Positions 6,240 to 48,311 of a DNA stretch of 64,000 nt are shown here, piece after piece. Source of the DNA: Candidatus Saccharimonadales bacterium (GTDB taxonomy: Bacteria; Patescibacteriota; Saccharimonadia; Saccharimonadales; SZUA-47); NCBI GenBank assembly GCA_041737385.1, contig JBGSRU010000009.1, forward strand, positions 7,015 to 71,014. Reading direction: 5' to 3'. A program made the position numbers and the translations under genes. The notes below the pieces were generated by a model that was not told the DNA's origin, ran no database searches, and saw only the letters and a list, made by a program, of their open reading frames with translations. Position 1 is the first letter of the stretch; each line of letters starts with the position of its first letter.

Positions 6240-6905
6240 ATGCATAGTCGATCAAAAATTATGGAGCAAGTAGATCCGGATGAGGTAAAGCTTGCGGAGG
6301 TGAGTAAGCACCCTATTGGCATCATACTGCTATATGTACAAGCAAGTGTCGGCATGACGCTAGCTGTAGGGCTATCATACTTTTTGTTACCGCTTGTCGT
6401 CACAGATACTGATACGGCGTTCTTCTACGGCAACATCTTTATGGCAATTGCAGTAACGATATCATTTGTCATCGCACTTATTGCGACACATATTTATAGA
6501 GAAAACAGATTAGTGCTTACTGATAGAAATATCACGCAAGTATTGCAGTACGGATTATTTAACCGTAAAGTCTCACAACTAAACGTCAATAATGTAGAAG
6601 ACGTTACAGCGCAACAGCAAGGGGTGCTTGCGACAATGTTTAATTTTGGAACGCTCAAAGTTGAAACAGCAGGAGAGCAAGTTAACTTTAACTTTAACTA
6701 TTGTCCGAACCCAGGGTTCTACGCAAAGATTATACTCGACGCTCGTGAGAAGATGCTTGGTCAGATGGCGCCTGATCATGTTGCTGCCCCACAAATAACT
6801 TTAAACCAGAATAACGGAACGGTAATTACTGCAAAGACAATGAATGATGCGGTGAAAGATCTTGGAGCTGAGACGATAAAGCGTGCAACCAGCTCAAAGG
6901 AATAA
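6240..6905 (+). CDS. Membrane protein with bacterial PH domain (bPH_2/YdbS-YdbT-like)
   Basis: Two TM helices are followed by LVLTDRNITQV...GTLKVETAG, the bPH_2 pattern. Confidence 0.55.
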   Translation: MHSRSKIMEQVDPDEVKLAEVSKHPIGIILLYVQASVGMTLAVGLSYFLLPLVVTDTDTAFFYGNIFMAIAVTISFVIALIATHIYRENRLVLTDRNITQVLQYGLFNRKVSQLNVNNVEDVTAQQQGVLATMFNFGTLKVETAGEQVNFNFNYCPNPGFYAKIILDAREKMLGQMAPDHVAAPQITLNQNNGTVITAKTMNDAVKDLGAETIKRATSSKE

Positions 6906-17060: not shown

Positions 17061-18887
17061 ATGAAAATAAAACAACTTATCAACAAAGTGACTCTAAGCT
17101 CAATGTTCGTGAGCTTGTTAACACCTATGGCGCTGTTTGTGCCAGTAGCAAATGCAGCAGCAGATACTTGTACGTGGGTAGGAGCTAGTGGTGCTGAAGA
17201 TACCGTAGCAAAAACATGGACTTTTAATGTTACAGATGCTGCAAACTGGGCTGGATGCGATAATGGAAACGTGCCAGAAGCTGGTGATTCGCTAGTGTTT
17301 CCAGCAAACTTAGCAGATGTTGATCCTGATGATTCTGAAACTGACGATTGGAGTTGGAAGTATATTGTAAACAACGACTTACCGGTTGATTCTGACATCA
17401 ACGGCATAGTTTTTAGCGCTGATACAGGGACCGATTGTCAAGTTTACGATGATAAATATACAATAGCCGGTAATAGTATTTCTTTAAGTGGTGATATTGA
17501 GGTAACTACGACAGGTACCTGCACCTATAATACTAGTGCAGTAGATATGTCAATAACAACAACTGCTGATGTAAAGATATCTACTGGCATAGAAGACCAA
17601 GTTAGTCCTTTTACTGTCAACACACTAACATTCGGAGCGAATGCGCTTAGCTTTTGTGATTTAACAGATGGTACACGATTAAATAAGAGCTTGTATCCTA
17701 ATAATTTACAACTTACAGGCACTGGCACTGTAACTATAGCGTGTGGAACATTCTCTTTACAAAATGTTTCATCCAATACATTTGGCAATGTCATCGTAGA
17801 AAATGGTAGTAGTATAAGTGGACCTCCACAAATATGGGGATACTCAGCAGCAAACACTTTCACGTTCAAAGACAATGCAACATTTTCATTTAATGACTAC
17901 AGTGTAGCTACTCAACTAGAGTTCTTGTCAGACATCGTTTTCGAAGGCACTGGTGGGTCATCTGCGTACTGTACTTCAACAGCTTGTACTGGAGCGGCAT
18001 ACGTGCAGATAAGCGACTATAGAGGTTATATAGCGAATTCTAGCGGTGGATATGAAGAGCCTACTGTTTATCATAAGACAGTTTTCTCAGGAGACGTTAC
18101 ATTGGTTGAAGACACCACTTTGGGCCTTAGCTCAAACGTAGATTTTACGGGTACTATTACAGGTGGAGCTTTCAAGCTGCTACCTGGTGGCAGGGGTGAG
18201 CTTAAGACAGCAAGCGGCACAGTGATGCCTACAAAAATAAATAAGACTCTAACTGATAATACGCGCGATCAATATATTTCTTACGGAACTGTTGGCATCC
18301 TTAGTTCTGACCAGACCATTACCAAAAAAATTACTGTAAATGAAGGTGGAACATTAAAAGGGAAAGGTTCAGTTGCCGGAATCGAGATTGAAACAGGAGG
18401 TACGCTTGCTCCTGGTGATAGCCCTGGATGTATTATTTCAACAGGTGATTTAACACTTGCAGGATCTTATGATGTTGAGATTAACGGAGCGACTGCTTGT
18501 ACAGAATACGATCAAACAGATGTCACTGGTGCAGTAGACGTAACTGGCGGCACGCTGAACGTAGCAATACTCCCAGCGTACACGCCTGCCCTAAATACAG
18601 AATTTGTGATCATTAAAAATGATGCAGCTGACGGAGTCACCGGAGTGTTTGCAAACTACGCACAGGGTGCACGATTTGACGTCGCTGGTGTCACCTACGA
18701 AGTATCCTATAAAGGTGGTGATGGAAACGATGTGACGCTAACTGCCGTTGCAGTTCCAGCTGCTGCAAAAACTCCTGATACTGGAGTTGGAAGCTTACTC
18801 TCAAGCCCGTTTGCTAGCCTAACAGCGATGATTATGGTCGCAGGCGCTCTCTATTCGTCAAGAAAATTTAACGGCTCTAAGAAGTAA
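17061..18887 (+). CDS. Secreted beta-helix-type surface protein with C-terminal xPDTG cell-wall sorting signal
   Basis: Signal peptide, then Gly/Thr-rich beta-strand repeats of the kind seen in autotransporter-associated repeats (GGTLKGKGSV, GGTLAPGDSPG, YKGGDGNDVTLT). The tail is KTPDTG, a hydrophobic helix, then RKFNGSKK. Confidence 0.75.
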   Translation: MKIKQLINKVTLSSMFVSLLTPMALFVPVANAAADTCTWVGASGAEDTVAKTWTFNVTDAANWAGCDNGNVPEAGDSLVFPANLADVDPDDSETDDWSWKYIVNNDLPVDSDINGIVFSADTGTDCQVYDDKYTIAGNSISLSGDIEVTTTGTCTYNTSAVDMSITTTADVKISTGIEDQVSPFTVNTLTFGANALSFCDLTDGTRLNKSLYPNNLQLTGTGTVTIACGTFSLQNVSSNTFGNVIVENGSSISGPPQIWGYSAANTFTFKDNATFSFNDYSVATQLEFLSDIVFEGTGGSSAYCTSTACTGAAYVQISDYRGYIANSSGGYEEPTVYHKTVFSGDVTLVEDTTLGLSSNVDFTGTITGGAFKLLPGGRGELKTASGTVMPTKINKTLTDNTRDQYISYGTVGILSSDQTITKKITVNEGGTLKGKGSVAGIEIETGGTLAPGDSPGCIISTGDLTLAGSYDVEINGATACTEYDQTDVTGAVDVTGGTLNVAILPAYTPALNTEFVIIKNDAADGVTGVFANYAQGARFDVAGVTYEVSYKGGDGNDVTLTAVAVPAAAKTPDTGVGSLLSSPFASLTAMIMVAGALYSSRKFNGSKK

Positions 18888-23006: not shown

Positions 23007-23049
23007 CCAACTAAAAAGACCACCTATAAAAAGTGGTCATTTTAGTTGG
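23007..23049 (+). terminator. 17-bp hairpin downstream of rny; part of repeat R1
   Basis: CCAACTAAAAAGACCAC..GTGGTCATTTTAGTTGG with one mismatch. It sits 49 nt after the rny stop. Confidence 0.4.
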
Positions 23050-23182
23050 TCGAGACCCACGCATTTTACTTGAATTGTTCAAATACATCTGTGAGAATCC
23101 TGAAAGTTCTAATAGGTTACTAGCTCGACTAAAACGAGAGCCTGTAAAAAGTACTGTCAAGATTGAGAACCTTGTATATTAG
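23033..23182 (+). CDS. 49-codon ORF inside R1 (possible small ribbon-helix-helix-like protein or conserved gene 3' end)
   Basis: GTG start. Compared with the R2 copy, nearly all differences are synonymous, including TTA/CTA and TTG/CTG Leu changes and six consecutive synonymous codons before different stop codons. Confidence 0.4.
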   Translation: MVILVGRDPRILLELFKYICENPESSNRLLARLKREPVKSTVKIENLVY

Positions 23183-24004: not shown

Positions 24005-24058
24005 TACGTCACACAATGACATTGTACGACATGCTCTAACAGGGATAGAGTGATTTAT
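24005..24058 (+). repeat. Direct repeat R3a (pairs with 26289-26343)
   Basis: TACGTCACACAATGACATTGTACGACATGCTCTAACAGGGATAGAGTGATTTAT versus a roughly 85 percent identical copy upstream of arsR. Confidence 0.7.
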
Positions 24059-24255: not shown

Positions 24256-24431
24256 ACCAACTAAAAAGACCACTCGTGAAAGTGGTCATTTTAGTTGGTC
24301 GAGACCCACGCATTCTACTTGAACTGTTCAAATACATCTGTGAGAACCCTGAAAGTTCCGACAGGTTACTTGCTCGACTTAGACGTGAACCAAAACCTAG
24401 AATGGTCCAAATAGAAAATCTGGTGTACTAA
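24256..24431 (+). repeat. Direct repeat R2 (pairs with R1)
   Basis: Starts at the ACCA end of the degenerate tRNA-Pro 3' copy and includes the hairpin CCAACTAAAAAGACCAC..GTGGTCATTTTAGTTGG. Confidence 0.85.
24282..24431 (+). CDS. 49-codon ORF inside R2 (paralog of 23033-23182)
   Basis: It is in frame with the 104-aa track ORF 24117-24431, but only the last 49 codons are conserved with R1. Confidence 0.4.
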   Translation: MVILVGRDPRILLELFKYICENPESSDRLLARLRREPKPRMVQIENLVY

Positions 24432-26288: not shown

Positions 26289-26343
26289 TACGTCGCACAA
26301 TCAACATTCTACGACATGCTCTAACAGGGGTAGAGCCATTTAT
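26289..26343 (+). repeat. Direct repeat R3b
   Basis: Copy of R3a. It overlaps the -10 and 5' UTR of the candidate arsR-merA promoter. Confidence 0.7.
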
Positions 26344-28612: not shown

Positions 28613-28876
28613 AACTACATAATAACAGGGCAAAATTGGAATAGCCACACAATACCTCAACATATACCTTAAAGCTTGTCCAGTGCTCTTAGGATGCTTC
28701 ACAGAGCAACTTTTAACTAAGGGTTCTTGTTCATCTTTTGCATTGTACGAATACCGAGCGACTGCTCACGATTTTTTTTCTTAGATTTTCTACCCTCAAC
28801 GCCATTTATTCACGCAACAATACTATTATTATCTGACAGTGGTTTTCTTAAAAACTCAGTAAACGTATGAGAGTTC

Positions 28877-29107
28877 TTAGGCAATTGTCCAGAAATTCAT
28901 CGTAACTTTGGTTTGGTTTTCTTTGGCGGTAGTTATTCTTTCGGCGAATACCTGATTGTTCTTCAGATAGTAATAAAAACTACTCCTCGAAATCCCTGCA
29001 AAGCGACAACTGTCGGTAATGTTGGTGTTATGGGATATTGCGTCAGCCAAGATAATGACTGTACGCATAGTTATAATTTGTGGTCTTCCTACTGATTTCT
29101 TAATCAT
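28877..29107 (-). CDS. Small helix-turn-helix protein (candidate element regulator or directionality factor)
   Basis: 76 aa. ITDSCRFAGISRSSFYYYLK is a resolvase/transposase-type HTH. Confidence 0.45.
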   Translation of the reverse strand: MIKKSVGRPQIITMRTVIILADAISHNTNITDSCRFAGISRSSFYYYLKNNQVFAERITTAKENQTKVTMNFWTIA

Positions 29108-29192
29108 TAAACTCCTTTTGTTTTGATATGTATCTATTTTAATTATCTCATTTACACTATTTTGGGTAGGTAACCTATAATATTAAATAATT

Positions 29193-30041
29193 ATGGGTAC
29201 TCCAAAACCGAAGAAAGCTAACGACTATGCAGTAGCAAAAGCACTGAACGAGGTGGTCTATAGTATATTGGTCTTTGTATATGCGGGATGGGGTACTGAT
29301 CTATATAAAGAACATGAAATTGCGGAGATTAACCGCACATACATTCTGATAACGCACGAATTAGAAAAAATATACGCACGTAACCCCGAATTACTTGCAA
29401 TAAAGCCCGATCCGATTTGGAGACTTTTTGAAGTACTGAAAAACACCACGGAGACTATAGCCGACCACTTTAGTGATTCCGACGACCATGGTGCAGAGCA
29501 TACAGTAAGGGTAGAAAAGTTATGTATCCTTGCTGGTGTAGATGAGCCAAGTTATACACCAGAGCAACAGAAATTGGTGGATAATTCTAAAGTGGCAATT
29601 AGTAATTATGCTGCGTTGGTCAAGAAGGAAGGCGAGAAATTGTTAGCAGTAAAAAAAGAATACGGCTGGGAGATGATGAATTACTATCTGACTTACAAAC
29701 CAGACGGCACAATCTTGATAAACGACGTATTGAAACTTAAGAAAGTTCATGCAGGATCCATCACGGAAAAGTTGCTAGAACAATCCATAAAGAATCCTAA
29801 TACTAAATTCAAGCCAGAACTCGGAAAGACAGCGAGAAATATCAGCACAATAGTTAGTAGTGCTGGCTTTACGCCTGTTCTAAGGGATTTGTTTTTCCCA
29901 ACTGTTAGTGGTGACACCGTCGTATTCCGTCCATTTGTATCTAAATTACAGGCAGATACAGAACGCATAGATAGAGATGAACTAGATTTGCAGCTCAGAG
30001 AAAACGGTGCTATCTGCAGAGTAGTATTTGAACCAAAGTGA
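29193..30041 (+). CDS. Hypothetical protein (282 aa) within the island
   Basis: Long ORF in which I recognised no family. Confidence 0.45.
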   Translation: MGTPKPKKANDYAVAKALNEVVYSILVFVYAGWGTDLYKEHEIAEINRTYILITHELEKIYARNPELLAIKPDPIWRLFEVLKNTTETIADHFSDSDDHGAEHTVRVEKLCILAGVDEPSYTPEQQKLVDNSKVAISNYAALVKKEGEKLLAVKKEYGWEMMNYYLTYKPDGTILINDVLKLKKVHAGSITEKLLEQSIKNPNTKFKPELGKTARNISTIVSSAGFTPVLRDLFFPTVSGDTVVFRPFVSKLQADTERIDRDELDLQLRENGAICRVVFEPK

Positions 30042-30182
30042 ACCGAAAAGAACCATATGAAACGACATCAAACTGATACAGCGACTTAAAGATATATAAG
30101 TTCTTTAATGGTGATAGGACGAATAATCCGAGTTCACCTAACTATAATCGTCTTGTTAGGAGGGCTCGAATACGGAGCCGAT

Positions 30183-30368
30183 ATGTCATTAAGTAATGAG
30201 CAAGAAAATAAGAATGTTACCAGTCAAGAAACTAACAGCATAAGCGATACAAGAATAAACCTAGCTGCCGTTGTCATTGGGCTAGAAAAAACTAGAGCCA
30301 CAATACAAGATTTAACAGATAACGAACTGTATGTATTCGATTTGCACGGGAACAAAGTATTACTATAA
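30183..30368 (+). CDS. Small hypothetical protein
   Basis: An internal ATG with a GGAG-like RBS is preferred over the 30108 start. Support is weak. Confidence 0.25.
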   Translation: MSLSNEQENKNVTSQETNSISDTRINLAAVVIGLEKTRATIQDLTDNELYVFDLHGNKVLL

Positions 30369-30420
30369 ATATTTAGCAAGAGTCTACACGAACTATTGAA
30401 TCAGTCTATAATACGACTAA

Positions 30421-32085
30421 ATGAATGATGATATAGCAACAACCAAACAATTATTACAGATGATGCAGACCTTGTATCCTAATCAGGATCCAAGAGATAT
30501 TGACCCAACAACTTTGCGATATGTCATATATGCTAGAAAATCTACTAGAAGTGAAGAACGACAAGAACGAAGTATACCTGACCAGATTGCAGACTGTTAT
30601 CTCAGAGAGGTAGACCTATACGGGTTAACCGTTATTGGTAAGCCAATCCGTGAGAAGCAAAGTGCAAAAGAACCAGATATACGACCTAAGTTTCGACAGA
30701 TGATTGATGACATAAAAGCTGGTAAGTATGACGGTATCATCGCATGGCACCCTGATAGGCTTGCAAGGAATATGAAAGAGGCAGGAGAGATAATTGACCT
30801 ACTGGACAAGGGCATTCTTAAAGACATACGCTTCGCTACAAGTAGCTTTGAAAACAGCCCAACAGGTAAGATGTTACTCGGCATATCTTTTGTTCTATCT
30901 AAACAGTATTCAGAGCACTTGAGTGAAAGCGTAACAAGAGGTAATAGACGTAAGACAGAAGGTGGTGTGTTCTTCGCTGATATGAAGCACGGTTACTACA
31001 TAGGGGACGGTAAGCTGTTTCCTGACGGCAATAACTTCATACTTATTAGACAAGCATTTGAGAAACGTCTTGAGGGTTGGGGTCAGAAAGAAATAGCTAA
31101 CTGGCTAAATACTCAAGGCTATATGATTAGAAAAAAGAACAAAAAGCCCCAAACATTCAAGTGGGACAAGGACAATATTAGTAAGCTATTTCGTGATACG
31201 ACTAATGCTGGAGTTCTTAAATACGGTCAGACATTCACTGACCTGACAGACTTTTATGATTTTGAAGCTGTTGTATCTGTTGAAGAGTTTCTTAAAATCA
31301 ACAAGGTCAAAGACTTGTCTGATCCTAAGCTAATGTCATCAATCTTGGTCAAGTCTAGAGAAGCCACGAAAGCAAATCTGTTAAGGGGTATGGTGTATTG
31401 TGGTTTTTGCGGTAAATCTTTTAGCTCTGGAATAACTGTCAAAAAAGACAAAGAAACTAGAAAGATACTCACTAGTCGTTACTTTTACCGATGTGAAAAC
31501 GAAGAATGTGAATTTAAGAATAAAAGTGTCAGAGCAAAAACTGTAATAGAGGTTGCAATCAAGTTCCTGTCTGAGCACCTGTACACGACTAAAGATAACT
31601 ATGATAGATATGTCTCTGACGCTAAAGAGTACGCTTCTACACAAGCCAAAGCTCTTGATGGCGACATTGCCAGCTTAGCTCGACAAATAGGCAATAAGAA
31701 AGCCGAGTACAGTCGCACAAAAGAGATTATCAGAGACAAGCCAGCTCTTGCCAAGCACTACAACTTAGATGAGATTGAAGCTGAGCTAAAAGCCATTACT
31801 ACTGACCACGACAAGCTTGCTAAGAGCCGTAAAGACCTCAAGCAATCGGTTTTGGAATATTCTGAATATCTCGAACTTTTTGAAAACATAGGTGTTATTT
31901 TAACAAAAACGCATGATATGGGGTTATTAGACGAGAACATCAAAAAGTTCTTCTTGAACTTTTCTGTGAAGCAATGGGGACTAGGTAAAAAACAGAGGTC
32001 AGAAGTTACCTTCAACTTAAATGAACCCTTCGCAGGGTTCATAAAATCGAACAATTTCGTTCATGGTCGGGGTGAGAGGACTTGA
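30421..32085 (+). CDS. Large serine recombinase (integrase)
   Basis: Resolvase catalytic domain (YVIYARKSTRSEERQERSIPDQ, DGIIAWHPDRLARN), recombinase domain, zinc ribbon (CGFCGK...CENEEC) and a coiled coil. The last 22 nt overlap the 3' end of tRNA-Pro. Confidence 0.9.
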   Translation: MNDDIATTKQLLQMMQTLYPNQDPRDIDPTTLRYVIYARKSTRSEERQERSIPDQIADCYLREVDLYGLTVIGKPIREKQSAKEPDIRPKFRQMIDDIKAGKYDGIIAWHPDRLARNMKEAGEIIDLLDKGILKDIRFATSSFENSPTGKMLLGISFVLSKQYSEHLSESVTRGNRRKTEGGVFFADMKHGYYIGDGKLFPDGNNFILIRQAFEKRLEGWGQKEIANWLNTQGYMIRKKNKKPQTFKWDKDNISKLFRDTTNAGVLKYGQTFTDLTDFYDFEAVVSVEEFLKINKVKDLSDPKLMSSILVKSREATKANLLRGMVYCGFCGKSFSSGITVKKDKETRKILTSRYFYRCENEECEFKNKSVRAKTVIEVAIKFLSEHLYTTKDNYDRYVSDAKEYASTQAKALDGDIASLARQIGNKKAEYSRTKEIIRDKPALAKHYNLDEIEAELKAITTDHDKLAKSRKDLKQSVLEYSEYLELFENIGVILTKTHDMGLLDENIKKFFLNFSVKQWGLGKKQRSEVTFNLNEPFAGFIKSNNFVHGRGERT

Positions 32086-32140
32086 ACCTCCGACCTCGCG
32101 GTCCCAAACCGCGCACTCTAGCCAACTGAGCTACACCCCG
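32064..32140 (-). tRNA. tRNA-Pro (anticodon UGG), CCA encoded
   Basis: CGGGGTG-TA-GCTC-AGTTGGCTA-GAGT-G-CGCGG-TTTGGGA-CCGCG-AGGTC-GGAGG-TTCAAGT-CCTCT-CACCCCG-A-CCA. A TATAAT box lies at 32154-32159. Confidence 0.92.
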
Positions 32141-32188
32141 ATGATGTATATGTATTATAACTTATAAAGGTTCAAATCTGAGGACTTG

Positions 32189-32275
32189 GTCACGTACCGC
32201 GACCCCGTCGCCACTTCTTTGAAAACAAGTTTACAAGAGTGAACTCCCTTGCGAAGTGCGCAATCGGCACTTCTC
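32189..32275 (-). repeat. Three-hairpin module, copy B
   Basis: The minus strand reads GAGAAGTGCCGATTGCGCACTTCGCAAGGGAG...CGGGGTCGCGGTACGTGAC, flanked by a tRNA 5' fragment and CAAGTCCTCA. Confidence 0.7.
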
Positions 32276-32302
32276 ACTCTAGCCAACTGAGCTACACTCT
32301 GG
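32276..32302 (-). pseudogene. tRNA 5' fragment (acceptor plus D arm only)
   Basis: CCAGAGTGTAGCTCAGTTGGCTAGAGT. Its 21-nt D-arm region is identical to tRNA-Pro, the acceptor strand differs, and there is no anticodon arm. Confidence 0.7.
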
Positions 32303-32435
32303 AATCAGCGTGTGATGATTCGGTTGCTGTTCCGCTCACAAAACAAGTTTGATGAACGAATCAAGCAACCGAATTAAGCCACTGATTCTTCAAATTCGAA
32401 AACCCTCTCTCAAATTTGGTTTAGCTACGAATATC
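32303..32435 (-). repeat. Conserved structured region, copy 1 (pairs with 46887-47020)
   Basis: Shared blocks are CGTGTGATGATT, GCC..GATTC and AGCTAC.AATA. The 11-bp stems covary, and the terminal hairpin at 32391-32418 pairs fully only on the minus strand (two G-T pairs). Confidence 0.6.
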
Positions 32436-32492
32436 TTCGGAATTTACTTCGGTAATTATAACGCAGTTAGAAGTCTTTTTCCAGTGGTATAA

Positions 32493-35170: not shown

Positions 35171-35359
35171 TAGTACCTCAGGAGGGAATCGATCTACCTT
35201 CGGCAGCCCCGAAACTACATCTATGAAAGCAATCTTTCAAGTGAAGGTTTCCTTACAAACTGCCACAGGCAGTTTTCACCCCGACCTTTTTGGTCGGGCG
35301 TTCGACTCGCTTCGCGAGTACCAAACTAAAAACCAGCCTAGAAAGGCTGGACTTTAGTT
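35171..35359. mobile_element. Miniature cargo-less insertion at the 3' end of tRNA-Arg(UCU)
   Basis: It begins with a 19/22 copy of the tRNA-Arg 3' end (35171-35192). It then carries module C1, an inverted degenerate copy of the tRNA 3' part ending in ACCA (35292-35323), and a hairpin. Confidence 0.5.
35193..35277 (-). repeat. Three-hairpin module, copy C1
   Basis: The minus strand reads GAAAACTGCCTGTGGCAGTTTGTAAGGAAAC...CGGGGCTGCCGAAGGTAGA, flanked by GGTCGGGGT and TCGATTCCCTCC. Confidence 0.7.
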
Positions 35360-35362: not shown

Positions 35363-35436
35363 TACCCCGGGAGGGAATCGAACCCCCGACCTGTGGGATA
35401 GAAGCCCATTGCTCTAATCCGCTGAGCTACCGGGGC
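35360..35436 (-). tRNA. tRNA-Arg (anticodon UCU), CCA encoded
   Basis: GCCCCGG-TA-GCTC-AGCGGATTA-GAGC-A-ATGGG-CTTCTAT-CCCAC-AGGTC-GGGGG-TTCGATT-CCCTC-CCGGGGT-A-CCA. A TATAAT box lies at 35452-35457. Confidence 0.9.
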
Positions 35437-35480
35437 GAGTACCAGATAAGTATTATAACAGGGGTTCGATCCAGAATCGA

Positions 35481-35566
35481 GCCACCTTTGGCGGCCCTGA
35501 AACTTCATGATTGAAAAACAAGTTTTCATCAGAAGATTTCCTTGCAAAATGCTACCAGCATTTCTC
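35481..35566 (-). repeat. Three-hairpin module, copy C2
   Basis: The minus strand reads GAGAAATGCTGGTAGCATTTTGCAAGGAAATC...CAGGGCCGCCAAAGGTGGC. Confidence 0.7.
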
Positions 35567-35620
35567 ACCCCGACCTGTGGGATAGAAGCCCATTGCTCTA
35601 ATCCGCTGAGCTACCGGGGC
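35567..35620 (-). pseudogene. Truncated second copy of tRNA-Arg(UCU), positions 1-54 only
   Basis: It is 100 percent identical to 35383-35436, and the identity continues through the 10-nt upstream flank. It ends at the T-loop where module C2 begins, with no matching 3' acceptor strand downstream. Confidence 0.75.
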
Positions 35621-35645
35621 GAGTACCAAATCGCTTAAAATCAAT

Positions 35646-46486: not shown

Positions 46487-46682
46487 TGGAGGGCCAGCGT
46501 GGACTTGACTCACCTTTGGCGAGCCCCGAACTTCGTCTTTGCAAACCAGTTTGCAAGAGAAGATTCGTTTCCAAAATGCCACCGGCACTTTTCACCCCAG
46601 GCACCCTTTTGGCGTGTCCGATGTTCAAGTTCCACCAACCCTACCATATGAAAATACCCACGGCGAGGTGGGTATTTTCATA
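46487..46682. mobile_element. Miniature cargo-less insertion at the 3' end of tRNA-Lys
   Basis: It begins with a 22/24 copy of the tRNA-Lys 3' end including CCA (46487-46510). It then carries module D, an inverted degenerate tRNA-Lys T-arm copy, and a 16-bp perfect hairpin. Confidence 0.55.
46509..46593 (-). repeat. Three-hairpin module, copy D
   Basis: The minus strand reads GAAAAGTGCCGGTGGCATTTTGGAAACGAATC...CGGGGCTCGCCAAAGGTGAG, flanked by CCTGGGGT and TCAAGTCCACGCTGGCCCTCCA. Confidence 0.7.
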
Positions 46683-46683
46683 T
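46646..46683 (-). terminator. Perfect 16-bp hairpin abutting the CCA end of tRNA-Lys
   Basis: ATATGAAAATACCCAC-GGCGAG-GTGGGTATTTTCATAT. Confidence 0.65.
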
Positions 46684-46759
46684 GGAGGGCCAGCGGGGAC
46701 TTGAACCCCGGACACCCTGCTTAAGAGGCAGGTGCTCTAACCAGCTGAGCTACTGGCCC
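46683..46759 (-). tRNA. tRNA-Lys (anticodon CUU), CCA encoded
   Basis: GGGCCAG-TA-GCTC-AGCTGGTTA-GAGC-A-CCTGC-CTCTTAA-GCAGG-GTGTC-CGGGG-TTCAAGT-CCCCG-CTGGCCC-T-CCA. Confidence 0.92.
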
Positions 46760-46868
46760 TTAATTTGAATGATATAGTAATGTGCTACTTGTAACTATAG
46801 CTTGCGGTAACTTTTGGTTAGAGCACCGGTGCTTGTAGTTATCTTGTCTTGGCATAGAATACCTCGGG

Positions 46869-46886
46869 CAGCTGAGCTACTGGCCC
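46869..46886 (-). pseudogene. 18-nt duplicate of the tRNA-Lys 5' end
   Basis: GGGCCAGTAGCTCAGCTG is identical to 46742-46759. A sense-on-plus GGTTAGAGCACC piece within the palindrome AGCACCGGTGCT lies nearby. Confidence 0.65.
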
Positions 46887-47020
46887 GTCGTTATCGTGTG
46901 ATGATTGTCTAGCCACACTACCAGCAAAATAAATTTACTGGTACTGTTGACTACACAATCAGGCCGATTCCTCTCAATTTCGAGAATCCTCTCTCGAAAT
47001 TGTTAAGCTACAATAGCAAC
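46887..47020 (-). repeat. Conserved structured region, copy 2
   Basis: See 32303-32435. It has a perfect hairpin at 46975-47002 (CAATTTCGAGA-ATCCTC-TCTCGAAATTG). Confidence 0.6.
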
Positions 47021-47142
47021 AAGGTATATATTATATTCAAATCGTATTCTACCCCTGTTATAGCTAAATGTCAAATGAACAACCATCTACGAGACTTGTT
47101 TTCTTAACGCAAGCTTTACGAACATGATGATATAGTTTAAGT

Positions 47143-47550
47143 ATGACAACATTACAAATTTTCTACACATATTTATTAATGATACCTGCATTTTTTGCAG
47201 TCGATCTTGTTTGGCTAGGGGTTGTCGCAAAAGACCTCTATGCCAAGGAGATGGGTGACCTGCTCGCTAAAACAATTAATTGGCCTGCAGCGCTTGCGTT
47301 TTACTTTATATTTATATTTGGCGTACTCTATTTCGCAGTTTTGCCAGCTGTCGAAAAAGATTCGTTTACAACAGTTCTTAGAAACGGCGCATTATTTGGC
47401 TTTTTTGCGTATGCAACGTACGACCTGACAAACCTAGCAACGACTGAGGGATGGCCAACTAAACTTGTGTTTATAGACATGGCGTGGGGAACAGTACTTA
47501 GCTTATCTGTTGCTACCGCAGGATGGTATATAGCGCAGTGGGTTCGATAG
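47143..47550 (+). CDS. DUF2177-like membrane protein
   Basis: Four TM helices, with a FAVDLVWLGVVAKDLY start region. Confidence 0.5.
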   Translation: MTTLQIFYTYLLMIPAFFAVDLVWLGVVAKDLYAKEMGDLLAKTINWPAALAFYFIFIFGVLYFAVLPAVEKDSFTTVLRNGALFGFFAYATYDLTNLATTEGWPTKLVFIDMAWGTVLSLSVATAGWYIAQWVR

Positions 47551-48311
47551 TAGTTTTTTCAAGTGTTGTCATACTAAGCTATTTCACACTATTTTACGCA
47601 TCAGCTGTCATACGCAAGAGAAACGACATTGCTGATGTTGCTTGGGGACTTGGGTTTACTACTCTAGCCTGGGCTCTATTTATTCGAAGCGGCTTTGAAG
47701 TCGATACAAGAACTATCATTACGTTACTCATGGTGAGTCTGTGGGGAGTTCGACTCGCAACCCACATCGGCCAAAGACATTTTTTGCACAAGGAGGAAGA
47801 CGGCAGATATCAAGACATGCGAAAAAAATGGAGCAATCCACTGCTTCGCTCCTACACCGATGTGTTCCTAACCCAAAGCTTCTTCATGCTACTCGTCTCT
47901 GCACCGATTATTCTATTTTTCTACGATGCATCTACACCACTACAGTGGTTTAACATAGTCGGTCTCGTTATATGGGTTGTAGGCTTTGTATTTGAGGCAG
48001 TCGGTGATTATCAACTTAAAATGTTTATAAAGCACGACAAAAAAGACGGCAAAATTATGAAATCTGGCTTGTGGCAATATACGCGTCATCCGAATTATTT
48101 TGGTGAGATTAGTTTATGGTGGGGCTTTTTTATCTTCACTCTGTTTACACCGTACTGGTACATCGGGATTATCGGCCCGCTAACTATCACCTACCTAATT
48201 ATCGGTGTATCAGGCATTCCGATGCTTGAAAAACGCTACAAAGGCAACAAAGAGTACGAAAAATACCAAGAAACCACGAACGCATTCTTCCCAGCCCCTC
48301 CAAAACGGTAA
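47523..48311 (+). CDS. DUF1295/steroid 5-alpha-reductase-like membrane protein
   Basis: YTRHPNYFGE..WWG motif in a polytopic protein. The start is uncertain because it overlaps the previous gene by 28 nt. Confidence 0.7.
   Translation: MVYSAVGSIVVFSSVVILSYFTLFYASAVIRKRNDIADVAWGLGFTTLAWALFIRSGFEVDTRTIITLLMVSLWGVRLATHIGQRHFLHKEEDGRYQDMRKKWSNPLLRSYTDVFLTQSFFMLLVSAPIILFFYDASTPLQWFNIVGLVIWVVGFVFEAVGDYQLKMFIKHDKKDGKIMKSGLWQYTRHPNYFGEISLWWGFFIFTLFTPYWYIGIIGPLTITYLIIGVSGIPMLEKRYKGNKEYEKYQETTNAFFPAPPKR

Follow-up and report, generated by a model that had tools for sequence, protein, structure and literature searches.

The subject of this analysis is Region B, a pair of related ~130-base non-coding segments in a 64-kb window (the whole stretch analysed, 64,000 nucleotides, nt) of contig JBGSRU010000009.1 from a Candidatus Saccharimonadales bacterium, an uncultivated organism represented by metagenome assemblies only. 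One segment, the Pro copy, lies next to a truncated start of tRNA-Pro, and the other, the Lys copy, next to a truncated start of tRNA-Lys; we call these truncated starts stumps. Region B is a real, strand-specific and structurally constrained non-coding element, and it matches no known RNA family. Our preferred reading, held with modest confidence, is that it is a lineage-specific, transcribed, hairpin-rich 5' leader of a tRNA precursor that was cut off from its tRNA by partial duplication.

Aligned on the minus strand, the Pro copy (window 32298-32431) and the Lys copy (46887-47014) are homologous, with 59% overall identity, and the matches are unevenly spread. The AAUCAUCACAC block is identical at 11/11 positions, each arm of the first hairpin stem (P1) at 9/11, the P1 loop at 5/6, and the tip of the long hairpin (P3) at 10/15. 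The middle of P3 agrees at 7/19 and 5/17 positions (29-37%), which is chance level, and is still paired. This mosaic, in which P1 and the AUCAUCACACG motif are alike but the P3 middles are saturated, suggests patchy gene conversion or a mosaic origin. The plus-strand sequence CGTGTGATGATT occurs exactly twice in the 64 kb (32309-32320 in the Pro copy and 46895-46906 in the Lys copy), a composite pattern has two sites in the window versus none in 100 shuffles, and a comparison of open reading frames (ORFs) found none common to both copies.

All coordinates and sequences that an earlier note on this DNA had given for the two segments proved correct. These include the Pro stem ATTCGGTTGCT/AGCAACCGAAT at 32318-32328/32364-32374, the Lys stem TGATTGTCTAG/CTACACAATCA at 46902-46912/46951-46961, whose single mismatch is C-C (G-G on the minus strand), and the terminal hairpins at 32391-32418 and 46975-47002, of which the Lys version has 11 perfect base pairs. 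Two details needed amendment. The terminal hairpin of the Pro copy does gain G-U pairs on the minus strand, but there are three rather than two, and the long stem, correctly described as kept in both copies, extends for ~24-25 bp rather than 11 bp.

Read as minus-strand RNA, both copies adopt the same architecture. The P1 hairpin comprises 11-12 bp, and its purine apex keeps GAGAGAGG in both copies. The outer stem P2 (Pro copy, 9 bp; Lys copy, 4 bp) closes an internal loop (loop motif AAUCAUCACACG), on the 3' side of which (C)AUCACA is conserved. P3, the ~24-25 bp hairpin, is conserved at its base (UGAUU/AAUCA) and at its A/U-rich tip. The strand preference proposed in the earlier note is evident in both copies: the minus strand gives fold z-scores of -5.8 and -7.9 and the plus strand -4.1 and -4.4, and minimum free energies on the two strands are -49.5 and -52.7 kcal/mol versus -38.6 and -38.4 kcal/mol, making the minus-strand folds 11-14 kcal/mol more stable. 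The minus-strand folds include 6 and 3 G-U pairs (9 in total), which would be A-C mismatches on the plus strand.

A C/D-box-like RNA on the plus strand (GUGAUGA ... CUGA) was considered, and we give it next to no credence. As in archaeal C/D-box small RNAs (sRNAs), GUGAUGA is found on the plus strand near one end of both copies and CUGA near the other end of the Pro copy, and Rfam returns weak matches (sR7, 15.3 bits; snoMe28S-Am2589, 21.8 bits). However, the Lys copy reads CCGA in place of CUGA and so has no D box, scores of 15-22 bits are below the gathering score of 37, the geometry yields no K-turn, and the plus-strand fold is the weaker of the two. Further, the genome looks bacterial, with intrinsic terminators and with CCA encoded in its tRNA genes. 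The plus-strand K-turn or C/D box was rejected on the missing Lys D box and the sub-threshold Rfam scores.

Base pairing in Region B has been preserved through sequence change. The RNAalifold consensus contains 32 pairs, of which nine are doubly compensated, four show one-sided changes and none is broken; being two-sequence pair counts, these do not constitute a formal significance test. Pairing in the structure is 100% and falls to 30-50% once partners are displaced by 1-3 columns; of 500 column shuffles, a single one reached the observed pairing values. For P1, a third sequence is available from a related contig (L017, described below): across the three, 6/11 pairs changed on both sides while 97% of cells are paired, a result that 0/500 shuffles reached. 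The structural conservation claimed in the earlier note thus survives both the slid and the shuffled controls. That single-stranded motifs are conserved while the stems vary and yet stay paired argues that the RNA fold matters.

These observations bear on the idea that Region B is a recent segmental duplication that drifts neutrally and has no function. Only two copies exist, in one genome, and the Pro copy is perhaps redundant. Nevertheless, nine double and four single compensatory changes with no disruptive change in 32 pairs, and the re-paired P1 of L017, make this reading highly improbable, and the middle of P3, randomised in sequence yet fully paired in both copies, excludes neutral drift. 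The earlier note had named such drift, combined with a lack of further copies, as the alternative to its proposal. The lack of further full copies was borne out, but random drift is contradicted by the excess of compensatory changes.

The placement of Region B fits a leader. All six tRNAs of the window are on the minus strand, and both copies start ~20-30 nt downstream of sigma70-like minus-strand promoters (consensus matches only). A few nucleotides separate the end of each from a perfect duplicate of the beginning of its cognate tRNA (tRNA-Pro or tRNA-Lys), and the tRNA 5' fragments recognised in the earlier note are real, matching at 23/23 positions for tRNA-Pro and 18/18 for tRNA-Lys. Region B therefore lies between a promoter-like site and a tRNA gene, on the tRNA strand, with the stump intervening and the intact tRNA 109-138 nt further on. 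From stump to intact tRNA there are 109 nt at the Lys locus (with an 18-bp direct repeat) and 138 nt at the Pro locus (with a 23-bp direct repeat). Between the Lys promoter and the intact tRNA-Lys gene, a two-hexamer promoter scan and a terminator scan found no other promoter-like site and no terminator, so transcription of tRNA-Lys probably passes through all of Region B, stump and spacer. After the Pro copy there is one terminator-like site on the minus strand, weak and internal to a neighbouring three-hairpin module.

Could Region B instead be an independent small RNA gene that acts in trans? As a protein-binding or sponge RNA it would work via the GAGAGAGG apex and the AUCAUCACACG loop, with the stump marking its 3' neighbourhood or its 3' end. 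The promoter-like sites of its own, the very stable fold and the strong conservation of single-stranded motifs (11/11 and 5/6) alongside stems that are free to vary are what such a gene might show. We nonetheless think this distinctly unlikely, given that no minus-strand terminator follows the Lys copy and only the weak module-internal site occurs at the Pro locus, that the homologous leader of L017 runs directly into the tRNA, and that the element was not found in the other genomes scanned.

Comparison with relatives connects Region B with tRNA leaders. Related genomes were located via neighbouring proteins. L017 has the same tRNA-Lys, letter for letter; its DUF2177 neighbour is 96% identical in amino acids, and its coding sequence is 83% identical in DNA. 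There, the same promoter is followed by AUUGUAGCU, P1, an unrelated 27-bp hairpin and then the intact tRNA-Lys, without a stump. In P1 of L017, 7/11 stem positions differ yet pair, and the apex AGAGAGGAAUC and GUAGCU are unchanged. The leader of L024, whose DUF6671 neighbour is 79% identical, is ~50 nt long, starts with UUGUAG at the place of GUAGCU, and is followed by tRNA-Lys; the final 18 nt before the tRNA read GCAUUACACGACUACGAU in L024 and UCAUCACACGAUAACGAC in Region B, with 14/18 matches. In L018, the same promoter stands 27 nt from tRNA-Lys, and the promoter sequences of L017 and L018 are closely similar to that of the Lys copy. The short leader of L021 is unrelated. Because L017, L024 and L018 carry a promoter or leader at this place, we place the Lys copy, on the aligned sequences, in the native leader position of tRNA-Lys, where it shares both leader ends; the 18-nt fragment is accordingly the start of a tRNA-Lys gene copy. 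The leader or promoter module that the earlier note offered as one option fits these data, with minus-strand promoters 20-30 nt upstream and, in relatives, a homologous or analogous leader that runs into intact tRNA-Lys. Another of its options, a larger RNA, would correspond to a putative co-transcription of Region B with the fragment, the module and the tRNA. An orthologous leader position is found at the Lys locus but not at the Pro locus.

Some features of the tRNA-Lys surroundings were noted in passing. The hairpin before tRNA-Lys in L017 (259-345, minus strand) is a near-perfect 27-bp inverted repeat that is unrelated in sequence to P3 and shows no strand asymmetry (-40.4 vs -43.9 kcal/mol), and long palindromes seem to turn over at the position directly before tRNA-Lys. 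A putative resemblance to boxA, the single-stranded GCUCUUUAACAA-like site shortly after the promoter of rrn-type antitermination leaders, concerns GUAGCUUAACAAUUU in the Lys copy and GUAGCUCUCCCGAACAAAG in L017, a sequence that falls partly inside P1. Genes for DUF2177 and DUF1295 membrane proteins occupy window 47143-48311, between tRNA-Lys and tRNA-Arg(UCG); in L021 and L024, FolD is directly beside tRNA-Lys instead. Named matches to DUF2177 beyond the closest relatives are from Bacteroidota (Chitinophagaceae, Cytophagales) at ~56-60% identity, and the DUF2177/DUF1295 stretch may be a horizontally acquired island.

The tRNA-Pro locus differs. A small integrative element (window 28720-32140) adjoins tRNA-Pro; it carries a gene for a 554-amino-acid (aa) large serine recombinase (30421-32085), whose stop codon falls within the tRNA-Pro 3' end, and ORFs of 86, 282 and 76 aa, the last of which is helix-turn-helix (HTH)-like by eye. 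The recombinase/tRNA-Pro pair recurs in four related contigs (L005, L006, L019 and L020) with flanks that vary on both sides, and Region B, the module and the stump are absent from all four. Thus, window 32141-32492 is lineage-specific, and the recombinase element is not tied to Region B. The whole of this ~350-nt interval is missing in L005 and L006, replaced by ~48 nt and by an unrelated spacer, respectively; in L005, 48 nt separate the tRNA from the start of the orthologue of window ORF 32493. In L019 and L020, the same CGTGACCAAGT piece is attached to another pseudo-tRNA stump. A search of the rest of the window for a displaced 3' fragment of tRNA-Pro found none. The earlier note had also proposed that Region B might be an element end. 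As an end of the serine-recombinase element it is rejected by the comparative loci, since that element occurs without Region B in the four related contigs.

The same comparison addresses the view that Region B is a site in DNA, either a recombinase or repressor palindrome or an attachment-site arm of the serine recombinase element. The recombinase gene that ends inside tRNA-Pro is 230 bp away, and P1 of the Lys copy is a near-perfect palindrome. But the recombinase/tRNA-Pro pair does without Region B in four contigs, and no recombinase is found at the Lys locus. Moreover, the stem mismatches become G-T pairs on one strand only, the stems are 11-14 kcal/mol better as minus-strand RNA, and a 25-bp stem with freely varying sequence is unlike a protein site. 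We regard a DNA-level site as very unlikely. Exact direct repeats of tRNA segments do occur at both loci (18 bp and 23 bp), with Region B outside them, and just 109-138 bp lie between the repeats, without recombinase or cargo.

Under the leader reading, events at these loci can be pictured as follows. A sigma70-type promoter would fire ~20-30 nt upstream of Region B on the minus strand, and the transcript would run from the GUAGCU box through P1, with its GAGAGAGG purine apex, and P2/P3, with the AAUCAUCACACG loop, originally passing straight into the tRNA. The leader of the tRNA-Lys precursor (promoter, GUAGCU, P1 and P2/P3) would have grown within the lineage from a short leader. The original tRNA start would then have become a stump when a short block arose behind it by insertion or partial duplication, bringing a fresh copy of the tRNA 5' part; the proposed inserted blocks comprise 109 nt with an 18-bp direct repeat (Lys) and 138 nt with a 23-bp repeat (Pro). 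RNase P would cut the leader from the mature tRNA, and the ~25-bp P3 would be long enough to serve as an RNase III substrate. Possible roles for such a leader include RNase P/RNase III processing, stabilisation and factor binding. Because the relatives have nothing like Region B at tRNA-Pro, secondary copying of a Lys-type promoter-plus-leader cassette is the likeliest account of the Pro copy.

Table 1. Positions of Region B, its promoters and the adjoining tRNA-derived segments in the window
Feature	Position	Strand	Basis or remark
sigma70-like promoter, Pro copy, TGGAAA-17-TATAAT	32455-32483	-	consensus scan, 10/12 positions; predicted start ~17-25 nt before GUAGCU
GUAGCU box, 5' edge of Pro copy	32423-32428	-	invariant in Pro, Lys and L017
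P1 hairpin, Pro copy	32391-32418	-	12 bp, three G-U, AGAGAGG apex; folds and covariation
P2 and P3, Pro copy	32302-32388	-	P2 = 32380-32388 with 32302-32310; P3 = 32318-32374
AAUCAUCACACG 3' internal loop, Pro copy	plus-strand CGTGTGATGATT at 32309-32320	-	fold and alignment
P3 tip AAACUUGUUUU, Pro copy	32340-32350	-	sequence
tRNA-Pro stump, tRNA positions 5-27	32275-32297	-	23/23 identical to intact gene 32064-32140
Block from Pro stump to intact tRNA-Pro	32141-32274	-	three-hairpin module, T-arm-like piece, TATAAT box
sigma70-like promoter, Lys copy, TTGACA-17-TAGAAT	47046-47074	-	consensus scan, 11/12 positions
GUAGCU box, 5' edge of Lys copy	47006-47011	-	alignment
P1 hairpin, Lys copy	46975-47002	-	11 perfect bp, AGAGAGGAUU apex
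P2 and P3, Lys copy	46893-46968	-	P2 = 46965-46968 with 46893-46896; P3 = 46902-46961
AAUCAUCACACG loop, Lys copy	plus-strand CGTGTGATGATT at 46895-46906	-	fold and alignment
tRNA-Lys stump, tRNA positions 1-18	46869-46886	-	18/18 identical to intact gene 46683-46759
Spacer X, Lys stump to intact tRNA-Lys	46760-46868	-	palindrome AGCACCGGTGCT, inverted 12-nt tRNA-Lys D-arm piece

Several points weigh against this reading. There are two full copies only, the covariation figures come from two or three sequences, and the promoters are known as consensus matches alone. P2/P3 is absent or replaced in L017, so that part is dispensable there. No such leader exists at the Pro locus of L005, L006, L019 or L020, and the leader reading accounts neither for the origin of the Pro copy nor for the presence of a tRNA-Pro-specific stump behind a Lys-type leader. 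Intact tRNA-Pro has its own TATAAT box close by (~32157-32162), so that the Pro copy is perhaps a now superfluous relic. The identity between the Pro and Lys copies is mosaic, from 11/11 in the motif to 29-37% in the P3 middle, and P1 and the AUCAUCACACG motif are closer between the two copies of this genome than between the Lys copy and its L017 orthologue. Finally, GUAGCU may derive from an older stump by erosion, and that would speak for nested insertion.

Such nested insertion is possible, if doubtful, as the main explanation. Region B would be the body or remnant of a small non-autonomous insertion that entered the 5' part of a tRNA (in the D-loop region) and brought a replacement for it, pushing older promoters and stumps upstream in Russian-doll fashion. 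The insert would do no harm, as RNase P would remove all that lies ahead of the restored tRNA. GUAGCU (tRNA positions 7-12) precedes both copies and would be the eroded older stump, a cognate stump follows each, and two related elements, one Lys-specific and one Pro-specific, would explain both the paralogy and the cognate stumps. Consistent with insertion, other nested partial duplicates occur at the same loci (direct repeats of 18, 23 and 64 bp), the three-hairpin module interrupts tRNA-like copies at the T-loop, with the 3' end of the tRNA itself after it, relatives lack ~350 nt at the Pro locus, and an 11-mer, AAACTTGTTTT, is common only to the tips of the Pro-copy Region B and two modules. 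Tandem accretion with partial tRNAs is, moreover, known (bioRxiv 10.1101/2020.12.28.424599). Against insertion, the searches made found two copies only and none elsewhere, no recombinase gene lies between the repeats, and the direct repeats vary in length, so there is no fixed target duplication. The short L024 leader has both Region B ends without the hairpins, which in-place expansion of a leader fits equally well, and a DNA element needs no G-U-dependent RNA structure.

Further copies were sought, as the earlier note had suggested, and no further full copy was found in the collections searched. The exact pattern GTGTGATGATT-N40-70-GATTC-N10-30-CTCTCTC gave one match in IMG/VR viral contigs, three in GTDB species genomes and 10 in JGI metagenomes; all were inspected and are chance matches, because none has the stems or a nearby tRNA. 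Exact-pattern scans of this kind leave room for more divergent copies. Among phages and plasmids, BLAST matched the tRNA-Lys gene itself and nothing else. A covariance model (R1) built from the two copies, run over the window and 17 related loci, recovered the two copies and a partial P1 match in L017 and nothing more, and with filters off it found no third copy in the window. At the gathering threshold Rfam reported tRNAs only, and permissive searches of both loci added only sub-threshold microRNA (miRNA) and small nucleolar RNA (snoRNA) noise. With two copies in 64 kb and a partial one in L017, Region B does not behave as a dispersed repeat of the MITE or REP-like kind.

The three-hairpin module is another component of these loci. 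Copies occur in the window at 32178-32276, 35474-35567, 35186-35280 and 46502-46600, and also in L017 (1-135) and L024 (5200-5345). The module sits at position 53/54 (T-loop) of tRNA-like copies. Where it is downstream of a tRNA, the T-loop-to-CCA end of that same tRNA comes after it (Lys TCAAGTCCACGCTGGCCCTCCA; Arg TCGATTCCCTCCTGAGGTACTA), and where it is upstream, the 5' part of that tRNA precedes it. The unit downstream of tRNA-Lys is kept in two other species, with compensatory changes, and folds as a multi-branch RNA that a T-arm-like stem closes (z = -6.0 in L017); the unit is absent in L021, which resembles an empty site. The module corresponds to no Rfam family and had no pattern matches in viral contigs.

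Like Region B, the module is on the same strand at the same loci, has a small hairpin followed by a long one, and is not in Rfam, and the Pro copy shares the identical hairpin tip AAACUUGUUUU with two modules. In the 64 kb there are exactly three instances of the 11-mer AAACTTGTTTT, all on the minus strand (32340-32350, 32222-32232 and 35515-35525) and always at the tip of a long hairpin, namely P3 in the Pro copy and H2 in each of two modules; the tips differ in the paralogues and orthologues of these hairpins. As a shared sequence, it apparently links Region B and the module in some way. However, there is no alignable similarity past the tip, and the module is found at position 53/54 of tRNA-like copies with the tRNA 3' part after it, whereas Region B comes after a promoter and before the tRNA 5' part.

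We consider it unlikely that Region B and the module are both small, structured, non-autonomous elements that colonise tRNA genes and duplicate the flanking tRNA part. If they were, and we rate this division of labour just as low, Region B and its kin would duplicate the tRNA 5' part and the module the T-loop-to-3' part, with an intact tRNA always regenerated. An equally slim chance attaches to the corollaries that the insert would be discarded, as RNA, by normal tRNA end-processing and that the folds and shared tip would reflect a common trans-acting factor by which the elements are mobilised or tolerated. The mosaic identity, the Pro stump, GUAGCU and AAACTTGTTTT keep a mobile mini-element alive as an outside prospect.

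Other partial tRNA duplications and promoter-like sites surround these loci. A 64-bp repeat at tRNA-Arg (35568-35631) is a further example of partial tRNA duplication: it is a 64-nt tRNA-Arg(UCU) duplicate of 35384-35447, 98% identical and covering positions -9 to 55. This duplicate is situated 184 nt upstream of the intact tRNA gene, with a module copy and a degenerate T-arm behind it. Its Rfam score of 30.6 bits is that of a weak tRNA, so that it could be mis-annotated as a gene. On the minus strand just upstream of intact tRNA-Pro and tRNA-Arg(UCU), the segments 32141-32175 and 35437-35470 have GTTATAATAC-N-TAT in common. The Arg version reads as an extended -10 box (TGTTATAAT) that the two-hexamer scan missed, and the module cassette therefore seems to bring its own promoter. 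A promoter-like motif, (A)ACAG(G/A)GGTAG(A/T)AT, recurs upstream of several tRNA genes in the lineage (window 47046-47060; L017 ~400-425; L018 ~1905-1930; L019 ~6850-6862) and also appears at window 24035-24052 and 26320-26337, within a 40-nt repeat pair (24019 and 26304). From its recurrence, it may be a lineage-typical -10 region. Elsewhere in the window, a 152-nt direct repeat (23030-23181 / 24279-24430) is 82% identical, with its copies 1249 nt apart.

Spacer X, between the Lys stump and intact tRNA-Lys (46760-46868), has no significant fold (z = -1.4). It contains a palindrome of 12 nt, AGCACCGGTGCT, and 12 nt copied from the tRNA-Lys D-arm in inverted orientation (GGTTAGAGCACC, plus strand 46817-46828), which hints at an inversion or template-switch event. 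The Lys stump can pair with the CCCG that follows it to form a local hairpin. A repeat that appeared to link spacer X to 17729-17759 is a chance match inside a 608-aa ORF.

How does Region B compare with known systems? Bacterial tRNA operons have leaders and external transcribed spacers, for example in E. coli glyW-cysT-leuZ, and some of these act as sRNA sponges. Like bacterial tRNA 5' leaders, Region B is non-coding and lies between promoter and tRNA on the same strand, and, as with the spacers of tRNA operons, it would be freed by RNase P and could act on its own afterwards. Unlike typical leaders, which are 27-50 nt in the relatives, it is much longer and more structured, and it forms a homologous cassette at two tRNA genes with a truncated tRNA start after it. 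RNase III processing stems occur in the leaders of rRNA and tRNA operons. P3 resembles them as a ~25-bp imperfect helix in a stable-RNA leader, free in sequence but kept in pairing; it differs in forming a local hairpin rather than leader-spacer pairing, and its cleavage by RNase III is a prediction.

Partial tRNA duplicates are also a by-product of recombination at tRNA genes (PMC9897764; bioRxiv 10.1101/2020.12.28.424599). Integrative elements leave partial tRNA gene duplicates (attL/attR; Williams 2002 as cited in PMC9897764), and tandem integrations leave remnants, with tandem accretion involving partial tRNAs a known process (bioRxiv 10.1101/2020.12.28.424599). As in such duplicates, exact direct repeats of tRNA segments flank foreign DNA here, there are several nested events per locus, and a recombinase-bearing element adjoins tRNA-Pro. 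In contrast to them, the repeats are of the tRNA 5' part and lie upstream, 109-138 bp without an integrase gene separate them, Region B is outside them, and their lengths differ (18, 23 and 64 bp).

For annotation, the 5' tRNA fragments of these loci should be read as stumps, not genes. The RNA fold is real but rare, and its importance is probably local rather than general. Wider value would follow only if the conserved motifs bind a factor or the blocks are mobile, and interest is otherwise modest unless a function in trans is shown. Should Region B indeed be a tRNA leader, however, tRNA loci in a reduced, uncultivated lineage would gather nested partial duplications while keeping the intact gene, and a long, structured 5' leader with a purine apex and a loop motif would be maintained by compensatory evolution.

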